64,000 nucleotides of DNA from Escherichia phage TH12: sequence record MT446390.1; one strand, given 5' to 3'. The translations under genes were made by a program, and so were the position numbers. Shown in pieces: positions 4,813-38,437 of the stretch (the stretch's first letter is position 1; each line of letters begins with the position of its first letter). The notes beneath the pieces were generated by a model. The model ran no database searches and had not been told where the DNA came from. It saw nothing but the letters and a program-made list of their open reading frames with translations.

Positions 4813-6138
4813 ATGCAATTGAATTCTCGTAATCTAAAAAGTATTATTGATAACGAAGCCTTAGCATATGCTATGTACACCGTTGAAAACCGTGCAATCC
4901 CAAACATGATTGATGGATTTAAGCCGGTTCAACGTTTTGTGGTTCATCGTGCATTAGATTTGGCTCGTGGTAATAAAGAAAAATTTCATAAACTTGCGTC
5001 AATTGCAGGCGGTGTTGCAGATTTAGGTTATCACCATGGTGAATCTTCTGCACAAGATGCAGGTGCATTGATGGCTAACACATGGAATAACAACTATCCA
5101 CTATTAGATGGTCAAGGCAACTTTGGTTCTCGAACAGTCCAAAAAGCTGCAGCATCTCGTTATATTTTTGCTCGTGTAAGCAAAAATTTCTATAATGTCT
5201 ATAAAGATACCGAATATGCTCCAGCTCATGAAGATAAAGAACACGTTCCACCAAAATTCTATCTTCCTATTATTCCGACAGTTCTTTTGAACGGTGTCTC
5301 TGGTATTGCAACCGGTTACGCAACAAATATTCTGCCTCATAGTTTTAAATCGGTCAAAAAGGCTGTATTACAAGCTCTTCAAGGTAAAAATGTCACTAAA
5401 CCAAAAGTTGAATTCCCGGAATTCCGCGGTGAAGTGCATGAAGTTGATGGGCGTTATGAGATTCACGGAACATATAAGTTCACATCTCGCACTCAAATGC
5501 AGATAACTGAAATCCCATATAAATTCGACCGTGAAACGTATGTGAGTAAGGTTCTTGACCCGTTGGAAGACAAAGGTCTAATCTCATGGGAAGATGATTG
5601 TGGTGAACACGGTTTTGGGTTTAAGGTGAAGTTCCGTAAAGAGTACTCGCTTCCTGATGATGAAGAGCTACGTCATGAAAAAATCATGAAAGATTTTAGT
5701 CTCATCGAACGTCGTTCACAAAACATCACAGTGATTAATGAAAAGGGTAAATTAACGGTCTACGATAACGTAGTGGACTTAATCAAAGATTTTGTTGAAG
5801 TCCGTAAGACTTACGTTCAGAAACGTATTGATAACAAAATCATTGAATCTGAAAAAGCATTTAAACTGGCTTTTGCTAAGGCACACTTCATCAAAAAAGT
5901 TATCAGTGGCGAAATTGTGATTCAAGGCAAGACTCGTAAAGCTTTGACTGAAGAGCTAGCACAAATCGAAATGTATAAAGAACATATCGATAAATTGGTA
6001 GGTCTTAACATCTTCCATATCACTTCTGACGAAGCACGTAAACTAGCAGAAGAAGCTAAAGCTAAGAAAGAAGAAAATGAGTATTGGAAGTCTACTGATG
6101 TTGTGACAGAGTACACTAAAGACTTGGAGGCACTTTGA
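4813..6138 (+). CDS. 52: DNA topoisomerase II medium subunit (gp52)
   Basis: 441 aa; N-terminus MQLNSRNLKSIIDNEALAYAMYTVENRAIPNMIDGFKPVQRF is GyrA/ParC-like and matches recalled T4 gp52 (442 aa). Confidence 0.9.
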   Translation: MQLNSRNLKSIIDNEALAYAMYTVENRAIPNMIDGFKPVQRFVVHRALDLARGNKEKFHKLASIAGGVADLGYHHGESSAQDAGALMANTWNNNYPLLDGQGNFGSRTVQKAAASRYIFARVSKNFYNVYKDTEYAPAHEDKEHVPPKFYLPIIPTVLLNGVSGIATGYATNILPHSFKSVKKAVLQALQGKNVTKPKVEFPEFRGEVHEVDGRYEIHGTYKFTSRTQMQITEIPYKFDRETYVSKVLDPLEDKGLISWEDDCGEHGFGFKVKFRKEYSLPDDEELRHEKIMKDFSLIERRSQNITVINEKGKLTVYDNVVDLIKDFVEVRKTYVQKRIDNKIIESEKAFKLAFAKAHFIKKVISGEIVIQGKTRKALTEELAQIEMYKEHIDKLVGLNIFHITSDEARKLAEEAKAKKEENEYWKSTDVVTEYTKDLEAL

Positions 6139-6214
6139 GTGCCCTAGCCTTAGGATTTCTCGGTGCAATAGCTGCACTAGTGATTTGGCTGTATTGGTTG
6201 GACAAACATGATTA

Positions 6215-6234
6215 GGGAGCTTCGGCTCCCTTTT
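6215..6234 (+). terminator. rho-independent terminator (GGGAGC-TTCG-GCTCCC + T4)
   Basis: GC hairpin with TTCG loop and T tract downstream of gene 52. Confidence 0.6.
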
Positions 6235-6257
6235 GTGCATTTTTTTCTCACAAAACA

Positions 6258-6298
6258 GTTTACATGTGCTTCAAACATGATATTATAGACCTATCAAA
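6258..6298 (+). promoter_or_regulatory. early/middle promoter cassette (GTTTAC ... TGCTTCA MotA-box-like ... TATTATAGACCTATCAA)
   Basis: Near-identical copy at 6579-6619; contains TGCTTCA resembling MotA box plus -10-like TATTAT. Confidence 0.45.
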
Positions 6299-6325
6299 AC
6301 AAAACAACCAAATTGGAGAAATAAA

Positions 6326-6541
6326 ATGTCTAAAATGAAATTAACCCAAAACACAACTACTCGTTTCGGTAAAGTTAAACCTGGTATGAATGCTCTCCGT
6401 AAAGCACTTGTTGAAGAATTAAATTTCTTAGAAGTTGAAATCAATTCTTTAGTGGTTCGCGGTTCAAATGGACATCATTTAGAAAAGCTTCGTTCTAAAA
6501 AGGCAAAACTTATTAGCCTTATTAAAGAAATGAGTTTGTAA
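6326..6541 (+). CDS. hypothetical protein (71 aa)
   Basis: ORF with RBS GGAGAA; leader and first codons (MSK) duplicated from the motA leader. Confidence 0.55.
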   Translation: MSKMKLTQNTTTRFGKVKPGMNALRKALVEELNFLEVEINSLVVRGSNGHHLEKLRSKKAKLISLIKEMSL

Positions 6542-6578
6542 ATTTTACCAGGGCTTTTGAAAAAGAGCCCAAAATAAA

Positions 6579-24651: not shown

Positions 24652-25239
24652 ATGCTTAAATTAGTATTCGCATGCGCACCATCTAAAACAGTTGATGATA
24701 AACTGGAATATGCTTTTGGATTAGGTGATGGGCTGCCATGGAAGCATATCAAACAAGATATGAGTAACTTTGCTGCTCGCACTAAAAACACTGTAATGGT
24801 TATGGGTGCTAAGACTTTTGCATCATTACCTCGTCTACTCCCAGATCGTACTCATGTGGTTGTCACTGATATGGCCAGAAAACTGCCTAGGACTAAAAGC
24901 GACGAACTTGCACGGTTCTATATCACCCAAGCAGAATTTATTACCCTGGTGACTGGTAGTGAAATTAACTTGTTCGGCCCTTCAACAGACGTACCGTTTA
25001 AACTTTCTACTGAACATGTTGATGTATCTGTTATCGGCGGTCCTGCTCTATTAAAACAAGCACTGCCTTATGCCGATGAAATTGTGATGACTAAAATCAT
25101 TAAGAAATGTCGTGTTAATTCAGACGTTCAACTTGATAAAGATTTCATCCAAGATATTATGCTTCAACGTTCTATGGTAGAATCTCATTACTACAGAATC
25201 GATGAACTCACCGAAATTACTGAGAGCGTATATAAATGA
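24652..25239 (+). CDS. frd: dihydrofolate reductase
   Basis: 195 aa; FGLGDGLPW, VMGAKTF, VIGGPALL motifs; T4 Frd-like; stop overlaps td start. Confidence 0.85.
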   Translation: MLKLVFACAPSKTVDDKLEYAFGLGDGLPWKHIKQDMSNFAARTKNTVMVMGAKTFASLPRLLPDRTHVVVTDMARKLPRTKSDELARFYITQAEFITLVTGSEINLFGPSTDVPFKLSTEHVDVSVIGGPALLKQALPYADEIVMTKIIKKCRVNSDVQLDKDFIQDIMLQRSMVESHYYRIDELTEITESVYK

Positions 25240-25784
25240 AACAATACCAATACCTGATTAATGATATCCTAGAAAATGGCTACGAAACAGACGACCGTAC
25301 AGGCACAGGAACAATTGCCCTGTTCGGAACTAAATTACGTTGGGACCTGACTAAAGGATTCCCTGCAGTAACAACTAAGAAATTAGCATGGAAAGCTTGT
25401 ATTGCCGAGTTACTGTGGTTCATGTCCGGTTCTACTAATGTTAATGAATTACGTCTTCGTACTCATGGTAGTCTAATTGAAGGTAAAACTATTTGGGACG
25501 ATAATTACGAAAATCAGGCAAAAGACCTTGGTTATCATAGTGGTGAACTTGGTCCTATATATGGTAAACAATGGCGTGATTTCGGTGGTGTGGACCAATT
25601 AGTTGAAACAATCGACCGTATTAAAAAATTACCAACTGATCGTCGTCAAATTGTTTCTGCCTGGAACCCTGCCGAAATTGACCAAATGGCTCTTCCTCCT
25701 TGCCATATGTTCTATCAGTTCAATGTGCGTAATGGTCATCTTGATTTACAATGGTATCAACGCAGTGTAGATGTTTTCTTAGGT
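25236..25784 (+). CDS. td: thymidylate synthase, exon 1
   Basis: ThyA N-terminal motifs; ORF ends in ...SVDVFLG immediately followed by TAA that begins the intron. Confidence 0.9.
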
Positions 25785-26800
25785 TAATTTAGGCCTAGGT
25801 ATAAGGTGACTTATACTTGTAATCTATCTAAACGGGGGACCTCTCTAGTAGACAATCCCGTGCTAAATTGTAGGACTACCCTTTAATAAATACTTCTATA
25901 TAAAAAGAGGTGTTTATGAAAAGCGGAATTTATCAGATTAAAAACACTTTAAACGGTAAAGTGTATGTTGGAAGTTCTAAAGATTTTGAGAAAAGATGGA
26001 AGAGACATTTTAAAGACCTTGAAAACGGTGTTCACTCTTCTATAAAATTTCAAAGGTCTTTTAATAAACATGGTAATGTTTTTGAATGCTCTGTACTGGA
26101 AGAAATTCCATATGAGAAAGATTTGATTATTGAACGAGAAAATTTTTGGATTAAAGAGCTAAATTCTAAAATTAATGGATATAATATTGCTGATGCGTCT
26201 TTTGGCGATGTGCTTTCAAATCATCCATTAAAAGAAGAAATTGCTAAGAAACGAGCTGAAACTGTTAAAGCTAAGATGCTTAAGCTTGGTCCTGATGGTC
26301 GGAAAGCTCTTTATGGTAAACACGGAAGTAAAAATGGCCGATGGAATCCAGAAAACCACAAGTTTTGTAAATGCGGTGTTCGCATACCATCTTCGGCTGA
26401 TACTTGTGGAAAGTGCCGAAAACGTTCAGGTGAAAATAACCCGTTCTTTAATCACAAACATTCAGAAAAAACTAAAACTAAACTATCCGAAAAGATGAAA
26501 GGCAAAAAGCCAGCTAACATCAAAAAGATTTCATGCGATGGGATTATTTTTGAATGTGCAGCCGATGCGGCTAGACATTTTGAAATTTCATCAGGATTAG
26601 TTACTTACCGTGTAAAATCTGATAAGTGGAATTGGTTCTACATAAATGCCTAACGACTATCCCTTTAGGGAGTAGGGTCAAGTGACTCGAAACGATAGAC
26701 AACTTGCTTTAACAAGTTGGAGATATAGTCTGCTCTGCATGGTGACATGCAGCTGGATATAATTCCGGGATAAGATTAACGACCTTATCTGAACATAATG
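25785..26800 (+). mobile_element. td group I self-splicing intron (1016 nt) carrying I-TevI
   Basis: Begins TAATTTAGGCCTAGGTATAAGGTG and ends ...GGATAAGATTAACGACCTTATCTGAACATAATG, very close to recalled T4 td intron ends; splits the conserved ThyA peptide DVFLG|LPFNIASYA. Confidence 0.9.
25916..26653 (+). CDS. intron-encoded GIY-YIG homing endonuclease I-TevI
   Basis: 245 aa from ATG 25916; MKSGIYQIKNTLNGKVYVGS... and C-terminal ISCDGIIFECAADAARHFEISSGLVTYRVKSDKWNWFYINA match recalled I-TevI. Confidence 0.9.
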   Translation: MKSGIYQIKNTLNGKVYVGSSKDFEKRWKRHFKDLENGVHSSIKFQRSFNKHGNVFECSVLEEIPYEKDLIIERENFWIKELNSKINGYNIADASFGDVLSNHPLKEEIAKKRAETVKAKMLKLGPDGRKALYGKHGSKNGRWNPENHKFCKCGVRIPSSADTCGKCRKRSGENNPFFNHKHSEKTKTKLSEKMKGKKPANIKKISCDGIIFECAADAARHFEISSGLVTYRVKSDKWNWFYINA

Positions 26801-34325: not shown

Positions 34326-35411
<1,086 letters not shown>

Positions 35412-35412
<1 letters not shown>

Positions 35413-36091: not shown

Positions 36092-36151
36092 TGGTTTACA
36101 ACATGGTGGAGTTGTGATACTATAACTCTACCAACAAATGAGGAAATAGAA

Positions 36152-36388
36152 ATGCTAAGTGAAAACCCAATCACAGTACACGAATTTCAGATTAAAGTAA
36201 AAGAATTTGCTCAAGCACTCATCAATAAAGTGTCTGAACGTTTCCAAGATGCAACATTACGAGTTATTCAAGAATCTCCACGTTCTTTTCTCATAATCGT
36301 TAATCCTAAAGATGGTGACCAAATTACTAATCTTAAATTAGGCAGTGACGGTCTTGTTGAAGCAACTCGAGTGTATGGAACACTATAA
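36152..36388 (+). CDS. hypothetical protein (78 aa)
   Basis: ORF with RBS GAGGAAA and promoter cassette upstream. Confidence 0.55.
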   Translation: MLSENPITVHEFQIKVKEFAQALINKVSERFQDATLRVIQESPRSFLIIVNPKDGDQITNLKLGSDGLVEATRVYGTL

Positions 36389-36508
36389 TGAGAGTTATCT
36401 CATTACTATCGAGAATGGTCATAAATCTGAGCACTACCAACTTAGCCTGTCTAATCCGGTTAAAGGTATTGTTGAATCAGAATCTGTTTATATCTCCTAA
36501 GGATTGTT

Positions 36509-37501
36509 ATGTTACCTGTCGTCGGAAAACTTATTTCTCCAAAAGAACTGGCTGAGATTATTCCTTTGTCGGAAGCTTACGCATCACAAGTGGCTTCTCA
36601 TCGCGAACAAGTTAATTCGATTATGAACGGTGAAGACCCACGCAAACTTATTGTTGTAGGTCCTTGTTCAATTCATGACCCTATTGCTGCTGTTGAATAC
36701 GGCAAACGTCTGGCTGAACTTCAAACTCGTCTTCCTAATGTTCTGTTAGTGATGCGCGTTTATTTTGAAAAGCCTCGAACTACCGTAGGTTGGAAAGGTC
36801 TTGTAAATGATCCATATCTTGACGGAAGTTTTGATATGAACCACGGTCTTATAGTTGCACGAACATTGTGTCGTAAACTTCTACGTATGGGACTTCCATT
36901 AGCAACTGAAGTATTAGACCCATTCACGATTAAGTATCTTTCTGGTATTTTCTCATGGGTTGCTATTGGCGCACGTACGACTGAAAGTCAGACACATCGT
37001 GAAATTGCTTCAGGTCTACCGATGTGCGTAGGCTTCAAGAACGCAACCAATGGTTCTATTAAAGTAGCTACAGACGCGATGTATAGTGCCGCCTGGCCTC
37101 ATCGGTATATGGGTATGGACGTCGATGGTACTGTAGGCATTGTTGAAGCTGAAGGTAATCAGAATACGCATATCGTATTGCGTGGCGGGACCAACGGCCC
37201 GAACTATCATTCTTCTGATATTCAAGAAGCTTCTAACAAAGCAAGGGCAGTAGGTCTGAATCATTATGTAATGGTTGACTGTAGCCATGCAAACGCTGAT
37301 GGGCATTATAGCAATCAAATTGATATTGGTAAAAATTTAGCAGCTAATGATTTGGTCAAAGGAATTATGATAGAATCGTTCCTACATGAAGGAAATCAAA
37401 AAATTTCTGATAATATGTCCTATGGCGTTTCCGTTACCGATGCGTGCATCAGTTGGGAACAAACTAAAGAGCTGTTAACTTATATTAATAAGGTTCAATA
37501 A
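36509..37501 (+). CDS. 3-deoxy-D-arabino-heptulosonate 7-phosphate (DAHP) synthase, class I (AroG/AroF/AroH-like)
   Basis: 330 aa; LIVVGPCSIHDP, MRVYFEKPRTTVGWKGL, IGARTTESQTHRE, GFKNATNGS, ILRGG and MIESFLHEGNQ segments align with recalled E. coli AroG. Confidence 0.85.
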   Translation: MLPVVGKLISPKELAEIIPLSEAYASQVASHREQVNSIMNGEDPRKLIVVGPCSIHDPIAAVEYGKRLAELQTRLPNVLLVMRVYFEKPRTTVGWKGLVNDPYLDGSFDMNHGLIVARTLCRKLLRMGLPLATEVLDPFTIKYLSGIFSWVAIGARTTESQTHREIASGLPMCVGFKNATNGSIKVATDAMYSAAWPHRYMGMDVDGTVGIVEAEGNQNTHIVLRGGTNGPNYHSSDIQEASNKARAVGLNHYVMVDCSHANADGHYSNQIDIGKNLAANDLVKGIMIESFLHEGNQKISDNMSYGVSVTDACISWEQTKELLTYINKVQ

Positions 37502-38082
37502 TGAAAGCTAGCACATACCTTCAGATTGCATATCTGATTTCTCAAGAATCAAAATGTTGTTCATGGAAAGTTGGTGCCGTCATTGAAAAAGATGGACGCA
37601 TTATTTCTACAGGTTATAATGGCTCTCCTTCAGGTGGTGTTAACTGTTGTGAACATGCATCCGAAAACGGTTGGTTGAAGAATAAACCAAGCCCGGTCAT
37701 CGTTGCTGGGCATAAAGAAGGCACTACAGCATTTGGACGGGTGGATAATTTTGTTTTGGCTAAAGAACATCGGGCTGCTCATAGTGCATGGTCCGCTAAT
37801 AACGAAATCCATGCGGAACTGAATGCAATTTTGTTTGCAGCTCGTAAAGGTAATTCTATTGAAGGTGCTACGTTATATACTACGCTTTCTCCGTGTCCTG
37901 ATTGCACTAAAGCTATTACACAGTCAGGTATTAAAAAGGTTGTATATGCAGAATTATATGACCGATCTCCTGAAAATTGGGCAGACATTCTTAAACAAGC
38001 CGGTATTGAAGTAATTCAGTACTCTCGTAATAATCTTCGTTCTCTGAATTGGGAACAAATCCGAAACTTTTGTGGTGAATAA
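37501..38082 (+). CDS. cd: dCMP deaminase
   Basis: 193 aa; cytidine/dCMP deaminase zinc motifs (HAELNAI, PCPDC). Confidence 0.9.
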   Translation: MKASTYLQIAYLISQESKCCSWKVGAVIEKDGRIISTGYNGSPSGGVNCCEHASENGWLKNKPSPVIVAGHKEGTTAFGRVDNFVLAKEHRAAHSAWSANNEIHAELNAILFAARKGNSIEGATLYTTLSPCPDCTKAITQSGIKKVVYAELYDRSPENWADILKQAGIEVIQYSRNNLRSLNWEQIRNFCGE

Positions 38083-38380: not shown

Positions 38381-38437
38381 TATGCTTTACGAATAGTATG
38401 GTATTATTAATCTATCGTCAAACAATAAGGAAATAAG

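Follow-up and report, generated by a model that had tools for sequence, protein, structure and literature searches.

A class Iα DAHP synthase gene with a rebuilt inhibitor pocket, predicted to escape feedback control, in Escherichia phage TH12 and other T4-like phages

The stretch of DNA analyzed here, 64,000 nucleotides from Escherichia phage TH12 (MT446390.1) and referred to below as the window, comes from a Mosigvirus whose nearest record is Escherichia phage 55 (99.4% over 6 kb). [quoted passage not shown] The ORF begins with ATG, runs from 36509 to 37501 on the plus strand and encodes 330 aa, exactly as given in the initial annotation, which had been made from the sequence without database searches. 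Its TAA stop (37499-37501) overlaps the cd ATG at 37501 by one base (TAATG), and a Shine-Dalgarno-like AAGGA, read from the sequence, is found 5 nt before the start codon (36499..36503, +). In T4, the equivalent slot from cd.2 to cd is occupied by the 112-aa cd.1 instead, in agreement with the initial annotation, which stated that T4 has no such gene between the small cd-proximal ORFs and cd. The interpretation that we favor, with somewhat more confidence than doubt, is that this gene encodes an early-expressed, feedback-insensitive class Iα DAHP synthase that would sustain the flow to chorismate once the host has been shut off.

The predicted protein is assigned to the class Iα DAHP synthases by all of the sequence and fold tests applied. 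Its score against Pfam DAHP_synth_1 (PF00793) was 253.8 bits (E=1.8e-75; cut-off 25.5), and that against the NCBIfam aroFGH equivalog TIGR00034 was 429.9 bits (cut-off 173.2). Among the isozyme-level models, the phage protein passed only the broader AroF-like subfamily model NF009395 (456.2 bits vs a cut-off of 343), and failed those for AroG (NF006723, 365 vs 568) and AroH (NF009396, 388 vs 463). The best match among solved structures was E. coli AroF (6agm, E=1e-104), with query residues 8-327 aligned to AroF 17-344, and alignment with the three isozymes of E. coli MG1655 gave identities of 51% to AroF, 48% to AroG, and 44% to AroH. All of the motifs that the initial annotation had named are present (VVGPCSIHDP, KPRTTVGWKGL, IGARTTESQ, GFKN, (V)LRGG, and ESFLHEGNQ). 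The metal-binding tetrad Cys61/His268/Glu302/Asp326 of AroG corresponds to C53, H260, E289, and D311 of the window protein and is invariant in all aligned phage copies, and the residues for phosphoenolpyruvate (PEP) and erythrose-4-phosphate (E4P), namely R92, K97, P98, R99, T100 (KPRT), A164, R165, K186, and R234 in AroG numbering, are all unchanged; this catalytic-residue check covered the window protein and seven other phage copies. An AlphaFold2 model of the protein (predicted template modeling score, pTM, 0.85) resembled DAHP synthase (DAH7PS) structures from N. meningitidis and E. coli with template modeling (TM) scores of 0.84-0.86, and the strands of the Iα-specific β6a/β6b hairpin were predicted at 198-203 and 209-214 in the (β/α)8 barrel. 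The class I identity claimed in the initial annotation is thus borne out by profile scores far above the cut-offs and by E. coli AroF as the closest solved relative; neither a missing family match nor a lost metal ligand, which had been named as signs of a decayed or unrelated gene, was found, the scores being strong and Cys/His/Glu/Asp retained. It is very probable that the ORF product is an active DAHP synthase.

Copies of this protein from T4-like phages range from 319 to 343 aa and share 56-100% identity with the window protein, and they fall into one clade in neighbor-joining trees (184/200 bootstraps in one data set, 100/100 in another). To define what sets this clade apart, 21 non-redundant phage-clade sequences were compared with the 99 nearest bacterial homologues, and a position was considered diagnostic when each group had its own residue there, fixed to at least 90%, and the two residues differed. 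Among 329 aligned positions, no more than 7 qualified: P150I, Q151K, D155G, L156I, S180P, F209Y, and T223A in AroG numbering, represented in the window protein by I141, K142, G146, I147, P171, Y200, and A214. All seven lie in or beside the Phe/Tyr inhibitor pocket. Four are among the ten feedback residues defined in the literature for AroG (D146, M/P147, P150, Q151, L175, L179, S180, A202, F209, and V221; PMC9529685), an enrichment with a Fisher p of 1.5e-5, and the remaining three flank feedback residues, L156 and T223 as immediate neighbors. P150I, Q151K, S180P, and F209Y occur in the 32 phage-clade sequences with no more than one or two exceptions, while the canonical residue is kept in nearly all of the nearest bacterial homologues (P150 in 93/99, Q151 in 98/99, S180 in 97/99, and F209 in 97/99).

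Several of these positions have a known role in feedback inhibition. The AroG variants P150L, S180F, and F209A/S are feedback-resistant, Q151 (AroF Q152) and S180 (AroF S181) touch the bound Phe or Tyr, and D155 stabilizes the inhibitor site (PMC9529685). Additionally, K142 of the window protein aligns with Q166 of yeast Aro4 (1hfb residues 160-251 aligned to AroG 145-236), and ARO4 Q166K is the classic tyrosine-insensitive, feedback-resistant allele (PMC7513737). The phage protein has kept Gly211, a marker of Tyr-type enzymes, and for this reason the phage lineage was probably derived from a Tyr-regulated enzyme.

The N-terminal arm differs as well. Only 52 residues precede the catalytic Cys in the window protein, compared to 60 in AroG, 61 in AroF, and 59 in AroH, which agrees with the shortening by about 8 residues relative to AroG that had been read from the sequence initially. 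Members of the phage clade have 48-52 residues before this Cys, and nearly all bacterial relatives have at least 58. The residues aligned with AroG 1-9, including D6/D7, are missing, while hydrophobic residues are retained at the positions of AroG I10 and I13 (L2 and V5), so that the N-terminal extension is still present though 8-9 residues shorter. In the AroG-Phe structure described by Shumilin and coworkers in 2002, the N-terminal segment reportedly helps close the inhibitor site of the neighboring subunit. Our literature search returned nothing on the N-terminal AroF mutant N8K. Because the pocket at the tight-dimer interface has been rebuilt and the N-terminal arm shortened, we consider it reasonably probable that the phage enzyme is insensitive to the aromatic amino acids Tyr, Phe, and Trp. 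The possibility of escape from host allosteric control, raised in the initial annotation from the short N-terminus, is strengthened by the replacement of four inhibitor-site residues in every T4-like phage copy.

A second phage lineage carries a comparable set of substitutions. Aeromonas phage HJ05 and three metagenomic relatives form a separate clade, which joins the T4-like clade in only 17/100 bootstraps and is at most 46% identical to anything else. Its pocket has P150A, Q151H/S, D155P, S180P, and F209V with the catalytic residues intact, changes that look like convergence. HJ05 is an unrelated 79-kb phage, and its DAHP synthase is very divergent, with 387 aa and a long N-terminal extension. 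Directly after this gene lies one for an Acb2/Tad1 hairpin-domain protein, of the anti-CBASS/anti-Thoeris sponge family (locus 4899-6546), and a methyltransferase gene is located farther upstream (1287-2024) with two ORFs between.

By tblastn, the gene was present in 212 of 50,697 phage records, and its ORF was intact in all 212 at a coverage of at least 80%. In 139 of these the identity was at least 95% (Mosigvirus), 47 records at 60-80% came from Klebsiella, Enterobacter, Edwardsiella, Erwinia, and Serratia phages, and the 26 below 60% comprised Proteus phages and a few unrelated contigs. Two metagenome-derived records named 'Acinetobacter phage MD-2021a' (CAKLQH020000056.1 and CAKLQH020000043.1) each carry an aroF-like gene at 45-48% identity, and may be bacterial contigs binned as phage. 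As an entity the gene is nothing new, since it has already been catalogued among the auxiliary metabolic genes of phages and is annotated in more than a hundred genomes. The protein shares 99.7% identity with the products of annotated genes in CEV1, Shf125875, O157 typing phages, p000v, and others, many records label the gene aroF, AroG, or phospho-2-dehydro-3-deoxyheptonate aldolase, and the protein aligns over its whole length with phrog_5045, which is placed in the category 'moron, auxiliary metabolic gene and host takeover'. It is also mentioned at the annotation level as ORF 64 of Mosigvirus phiC120, in a paper that loosely ties the domain to lipopolysaccharide synthesis (PMC8022965), and has been proposed as an amino-acid auxiliary metabolic gene in a Kanagawavirus infecting Klebsiella (PMC11845039). 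Given the near-identical annotated genes in many Mosigvirus records, a PHROG of its own, and these two genome papers, the initial annotation had overestimated the novelty of the gene.

The closest enzyme outside Mosigvirus is that of Kanagawavirus (77% identity), and the closest bacterial proteins are just 50-55% identical and come from scattered phyla. The G+C content at third codon positions (GC3) is 0.30 for the gene, 0.25-0.35 for phage core genes in the window, and 0.50 and 0.57 for E. coli aroF and aroG. The ratio of nonsynonymous to synonymous substitution rates (dN/dS) was 0.10-0.22 in eight pairs, within and between genera, which shows purifying selection. The position is conserved too: Mosigvirus, a Klebsiella phage, Bragavirus, Winklervirus, Kanagawavirus, and a T4-like contig from a metagenome all have the gene in the pseT/cd.2-cd slot. 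The cd.2-cd interval is itself a variable, hyperplastic region, and in T4 and other Tequatrovirus it holds cd.1 or small ORFs. The single clade, phage-like GC3, low dN/dS, and kept position together indicate that T4-like phages of Enterobacterales have carried the gene for a long time and under selection. We reject a recent capture of the gene from E. coli in view of the identities of only 51/48/44% to AroF/AroG/AroH, and the phage-like GC3 and the scattered nearest bacterial matches at 50-55% also speak against it. A bacterial donor with the phage pocket signature was found in 0 of the top 150 50%-identity representatives. The top match in this representative library, P0241 (799 aa), consists of two DAHP synthases in tandem, each half with a canonical pocket, and is unrelated to the phage clade.

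Within Mosigvirus, the gene is carried on a cassette of 1,113 bp (36389..37500) that consists of a relic ORF and the DAHP synthase gene and is flanked at either end by ATAATGA, a motif of overlapping stop and start codons (36385-36391 and 37498-37504). The cassette is absent from RB69, where cd.2 directly abuts cd. The empty site was found in 11 Mosigvirus records (H141-H151), which represent about six phages (RB69, vB_Eco_mar005P1, JK42, JK36, moha, and ECO111 5-P), compared to about 139 other records with the gene. The survey across T-even genomes that the initial annotation had called for thus shows several genera with the gene, and T4 and RB69 without it. The relic ORF (36375..36500, +; 41 aa, phrog_15876), encoded in the 120 bp that separate cd.2 from the DAHP synthase gene and unannotated in PhAPEC2, corresponds to the C-terminal half of a second cd.2 homologue. 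Its local alignment scores were 60-71 to the cd.2 proteins of Kanagawavirus and Klebsiella phages vs 30 to the window's own cd.2, and it looks like a scar of the recombination that brought the cassette in. These sequences are most simply read as the result of recombination with a Kanagawavirus/Klebsiella-phage-like donor, which would have brought the cassette into the Mosigvirus lineage; genomes of the RB69 type would never have acquired it, or would have lost it precisely. The cd gene of RB69 (NC_004928, 5743-6252) encodes 169 aa vs 193 aa in the window, its frame changing after ...ADILK to give a different, shorter dCMP deaminase tail.

Upstream of the DAHP synthase gene lie homologues of pseT (34513-35412), cd.4, and cd.3 in addition to cd.2, and the same strand carries, farther upstream, gp32, frd, a seemingly split td plus a GIY-YIG homing-endonuclease ORF, nrdA, nrdB, rnlA, and alc. 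The frd (24652), td (25236), nrdA (27456), and nrdB (29762) genes are 6-12 kb away, so that the proximity of frd, td, and nrd genes noted initially holds. The td gene looks split (25236-26653, +), with an ORF that matches only profile positions 1-175 of 266, and the GIY-YIG/I-TevI-like homing-endonuclease ORF (25910-26653) follows this td part, as in the T4 td group I intron.

A pattern resembling a sigma-70/T4 early promoter, TTTACA-17-TACTAT with an upstream TG, was matched in the cd.3-cd.2 gap (36095..36123, +), and in the T4 record an early promoter is annotated in the corresponding gap. The promoter/terminator pattern scan as such was not enriched over shuffled sequences (18 vs 15.9 expected), and it is because of the position matching the T4 early promoter, rather than because of the scan, that we take this pattern as the likely start of a cd.2-DAHP synthase-cd transcript. 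No terminator-like sites were found by pattern scan on the gene's strand from pseT to gene 31. The MotA-box-like middle-promoter pattern TGCTTYA-N10-14-TANNNT occurred 12 times in the window vs 3.35 expected, 11 of these on the plus strand, including one inside pseT (35105-35129, +) and another just upstream of gene 31 (38383-38407, +). The promoter patterns, the position of the gene, and its start/stop overlap with cd suggest early or middle co-expression of the DAHP synthase with cd.

Flux through the shikimate pathway is controlled at the DAHP synthase step. In the host, the isozymes are subject to feedback inhibition and are transcriptionally repressed in the presence of aromatic amino acids, and they are not re-inducible after host shut-off of the T4 type; for these reasons, an unregulated phage enzyme would be able to keep chorismate flux going. 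According to the model that we favor, the phage DAHP synthase would be made early from the cd.2-cd unit, together with enzymes of nucleotide metabolism, and would run the normal reaction from PEP and E4P to DAHP while ignoring Tyr, Phe, and Trp. The later steps of the pathway would be left to pre-existing host enzymes, and chorismate synthesis could thereby continue in any medium, supplying aromatic amino acids for the burst of virion proteins, or p-aminobenzoate/folate and quinones. We are less sure of the particular downstream beneficiary among amino acids, folate, and quinones.

A number of observations weigh against this model. The cassette is dispensable and any benefit from it is conditional, because RB69 and about five other Mosigvirus isolates without the gene grow well. 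No other shikimate-pathway gene was found in the loci inspected, and the effect hinges on host enzymes outlasting shut-off. Our literature search on phage DAHP synthase returned annotation-level mentions only, and no enzymology, expression, or genetic (knock-out) work was found. With regard to the pocket, there is no sign of drift: the segment corresponding to AroG 145-189 is 95-100% conserved inside the phage clade and 80-96% conserved in bacteria, and this conservation is equally compatible with a constraint from catalysis or dimer packing, or with another ligand, as with lost regulation. Non-canonical pockets are also common in the wider family, the changes not being unique to phages: among 150 diverse 50%-identity representatives, the pocket varied far more than in the closest relatives, Q151 being present in 86/153 domain matches (with another residue in about 40%) and S180 in 100/153, with S180P in 23/153. 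This wide variability weakens the argument from convergence, and the HJ05 pocket could instead have been inherited from an unusual bacterial ancestor. Finally, the AlphaFold2 model has a predicted local distance difference test (pLDDT) score below 50 over residues 141-176 (window 36929-37036) and was used for the overall fold only. No other part of the protein is as well conserved in the phage clade, and altered pocket residues lie within this stretch; its low pLDDT may stem from the shallow 43-sequence alignment or from a real difference.

Of the competing explanations, the one that we take most seriously, although we regard it as unlikely, is that the protein is an ordinary AroF-like isozyme that is still regulated by Tyr, in which case the phage would be adding enzyme and the pocket substitutions would be neutral or compensatory. 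Consistent with this, the Tyr-type marker Gly211 is present, D146, P(147), L179, and V221 are retained along with the hydrophobic residues at the AroG I10/I13 positions, and the best subfamily model is the AroF-like NF009395. However, Q151 and S180, the polar residues reported to hold the inhibitor main chain, are both replaced, changes at P150 and F209 give resistance in AroG, the Q-to-K change is that of the resistant yeast allele, and chance falls far short of explaining the clustering of the substitutions at the pocket. Slightly less likely still is a re-specified pocket, which would place the enzyme under the control of another small molecule (e.g., a nucleotide or phage-relevant metabolite) or of a phage or host protein. 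Across genera otherwise diverging by up to about 43%, all seven diagnostic residues stay fixed, conservation within the clade is highest in the segment AroG 145-189, and the gene is translationally linked to cd, itself encoding an allosteric enzyme, all of which would fit such a role; yet this segment, well conserved in bacteria too, also holds the catalytic A164 and R165 and dimer contacts, the sequence points to no candidate ligand, and the model of the pocket is unreliable.

The location of the gene inside a block devoted to nucleotide metabolism (frd, td, nrdA, nrdB, DAHP synthase, cd), with no accompanying shikimate gene at any locus inspected, could also be explained if the unregulated enzyme served as a sink, draining E4P and PEP and thereby pulling transketolase/transaldolase toward pentose phosphates for nucleotides, or lowering PEP-dependent host functions. 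Cyanophage auxiliary genes are known to redirect pentose-phosphate flux. We assign this explanation a low probability: the cost is one PEP per E4P, and the cd.2-cd slot holds unrelated small ORFs in other T4-like phages, so that the position may lack functional meaning. It is very improbable that the reaction itself has changed, with PEP being joined to another sugar phosphate in the manner of 3-deoxy-D-manno-octulosonate 8-phosphate (KDO8P) synthase, for example to make an unusual sugar for DNA or surface modification. Mosigvirus DNA carries arabinosyl-hydroxymethylcytosine (arabinosyl-hmC), which would speak for this idea, as would the loose tie to lipopolysaccharide synthesis made in PMC8022965, but the E4P-specific KPRT motif and all checked substrate residues are unchanged and the TIGR00034 model was passed. 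Moreover, RB69, the prototype Mosigvirus, lacks the gene, which is also found in several other phage genera, and a link to arabinosyl-hmC DNA modification is ruled out on these two grounds. Equally improbable is a decaying or selfish passenger without function for the phage. Such a passenger might be expected from the polymorphic site, empty in the 11 Mosigvirus records, and the hyperplastic slot, but not from an ORF that is intact in 212 records, with dN/dS of 0.1-0.2 and invariant catalytic residues, and that has been kept across deep phage divergence. We rank these alternatives in the order Tyr-regulated isozyme, re-specified pocket, E4P/PEP sink, changed substrate, and passenger, the last two being poorly supported.

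Returning to the favored reading, a feedback-insensitive enzyme, it is useful to set the phage protein beside known systems. With E. coli AroF (Tyr-sensitive; 6AGL/6AGM), it shares 51% identity, the metal ligands, the substrate residues, and Gly211, whereas it is 9 residues shorter N-terminally, has shorter loops in the C-terminal third, is changed in its pocket at AroG P150, Q151, D155, S180, and F209 (AroF numbers +1), and is encoded by a gene of phage-like base composition. With the resistant variants AroG P150L, S180F, and F209A/S and ARO4 Q166K, it shares changes at the same four positions, the Q-to-K change being identical. Those variants, however, are single changes with measured kinetics, while in the phage enzyme several changes occur together with the N-terminal truncation and have stayed fixed during a long evolution. 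The phage lineage has the appearance of a feedback-resistant DAHP synthase of natural origin that carries multiple substitutions and has been maintained for a long time. The database phage DAHP synthases (phrog_5045; Mosigvirus, Kanagawavirus, Winklervirus, Bragavirus, and Klebsiella phages) are the same gene, with no difference. A functional likeness may also be drawn to PhzC of phenazine producers, an extra unregulated entry enzyme that secures chorismate regardless of aromatic amino-acid levels. PhzC is a type II DAHP synthase found beside chorismate-using enzymes, whereas the phage has a solitary gene of class Iα. Pathway-dedicated, feedback-insensitive DAHP synthases are described for bacterial secondary-metabolite clusters (PMC8772962).

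What the present analysis adds to the existing annotations is a specific, testable claim: the DAHP synthases of phages would be naturally occurring variants of the feedback site. It is unlikely that the pocket is instead a new allosteric site tuned to a phage-specific signal, or that the enzyme mainly redirects central carbon (E4P, PEP); if either were true, it would constitute an unrecognized kind of metabolic take-over device in enterobacterial phages. The Mosigvirus isolates with and without the cassette would offer a clean natural experiment on the worth of an auxiliary metabolic gene. If feedback insensitivity is confirmed, the phage protein would provide metabolic engineers with a ready-made, compact, deregulated class Iα enzyme, and it would show that the principal point at which aromatic biosynthesis is controlled is overridden by lytic phages of enterobacteria once the host has been shut down.

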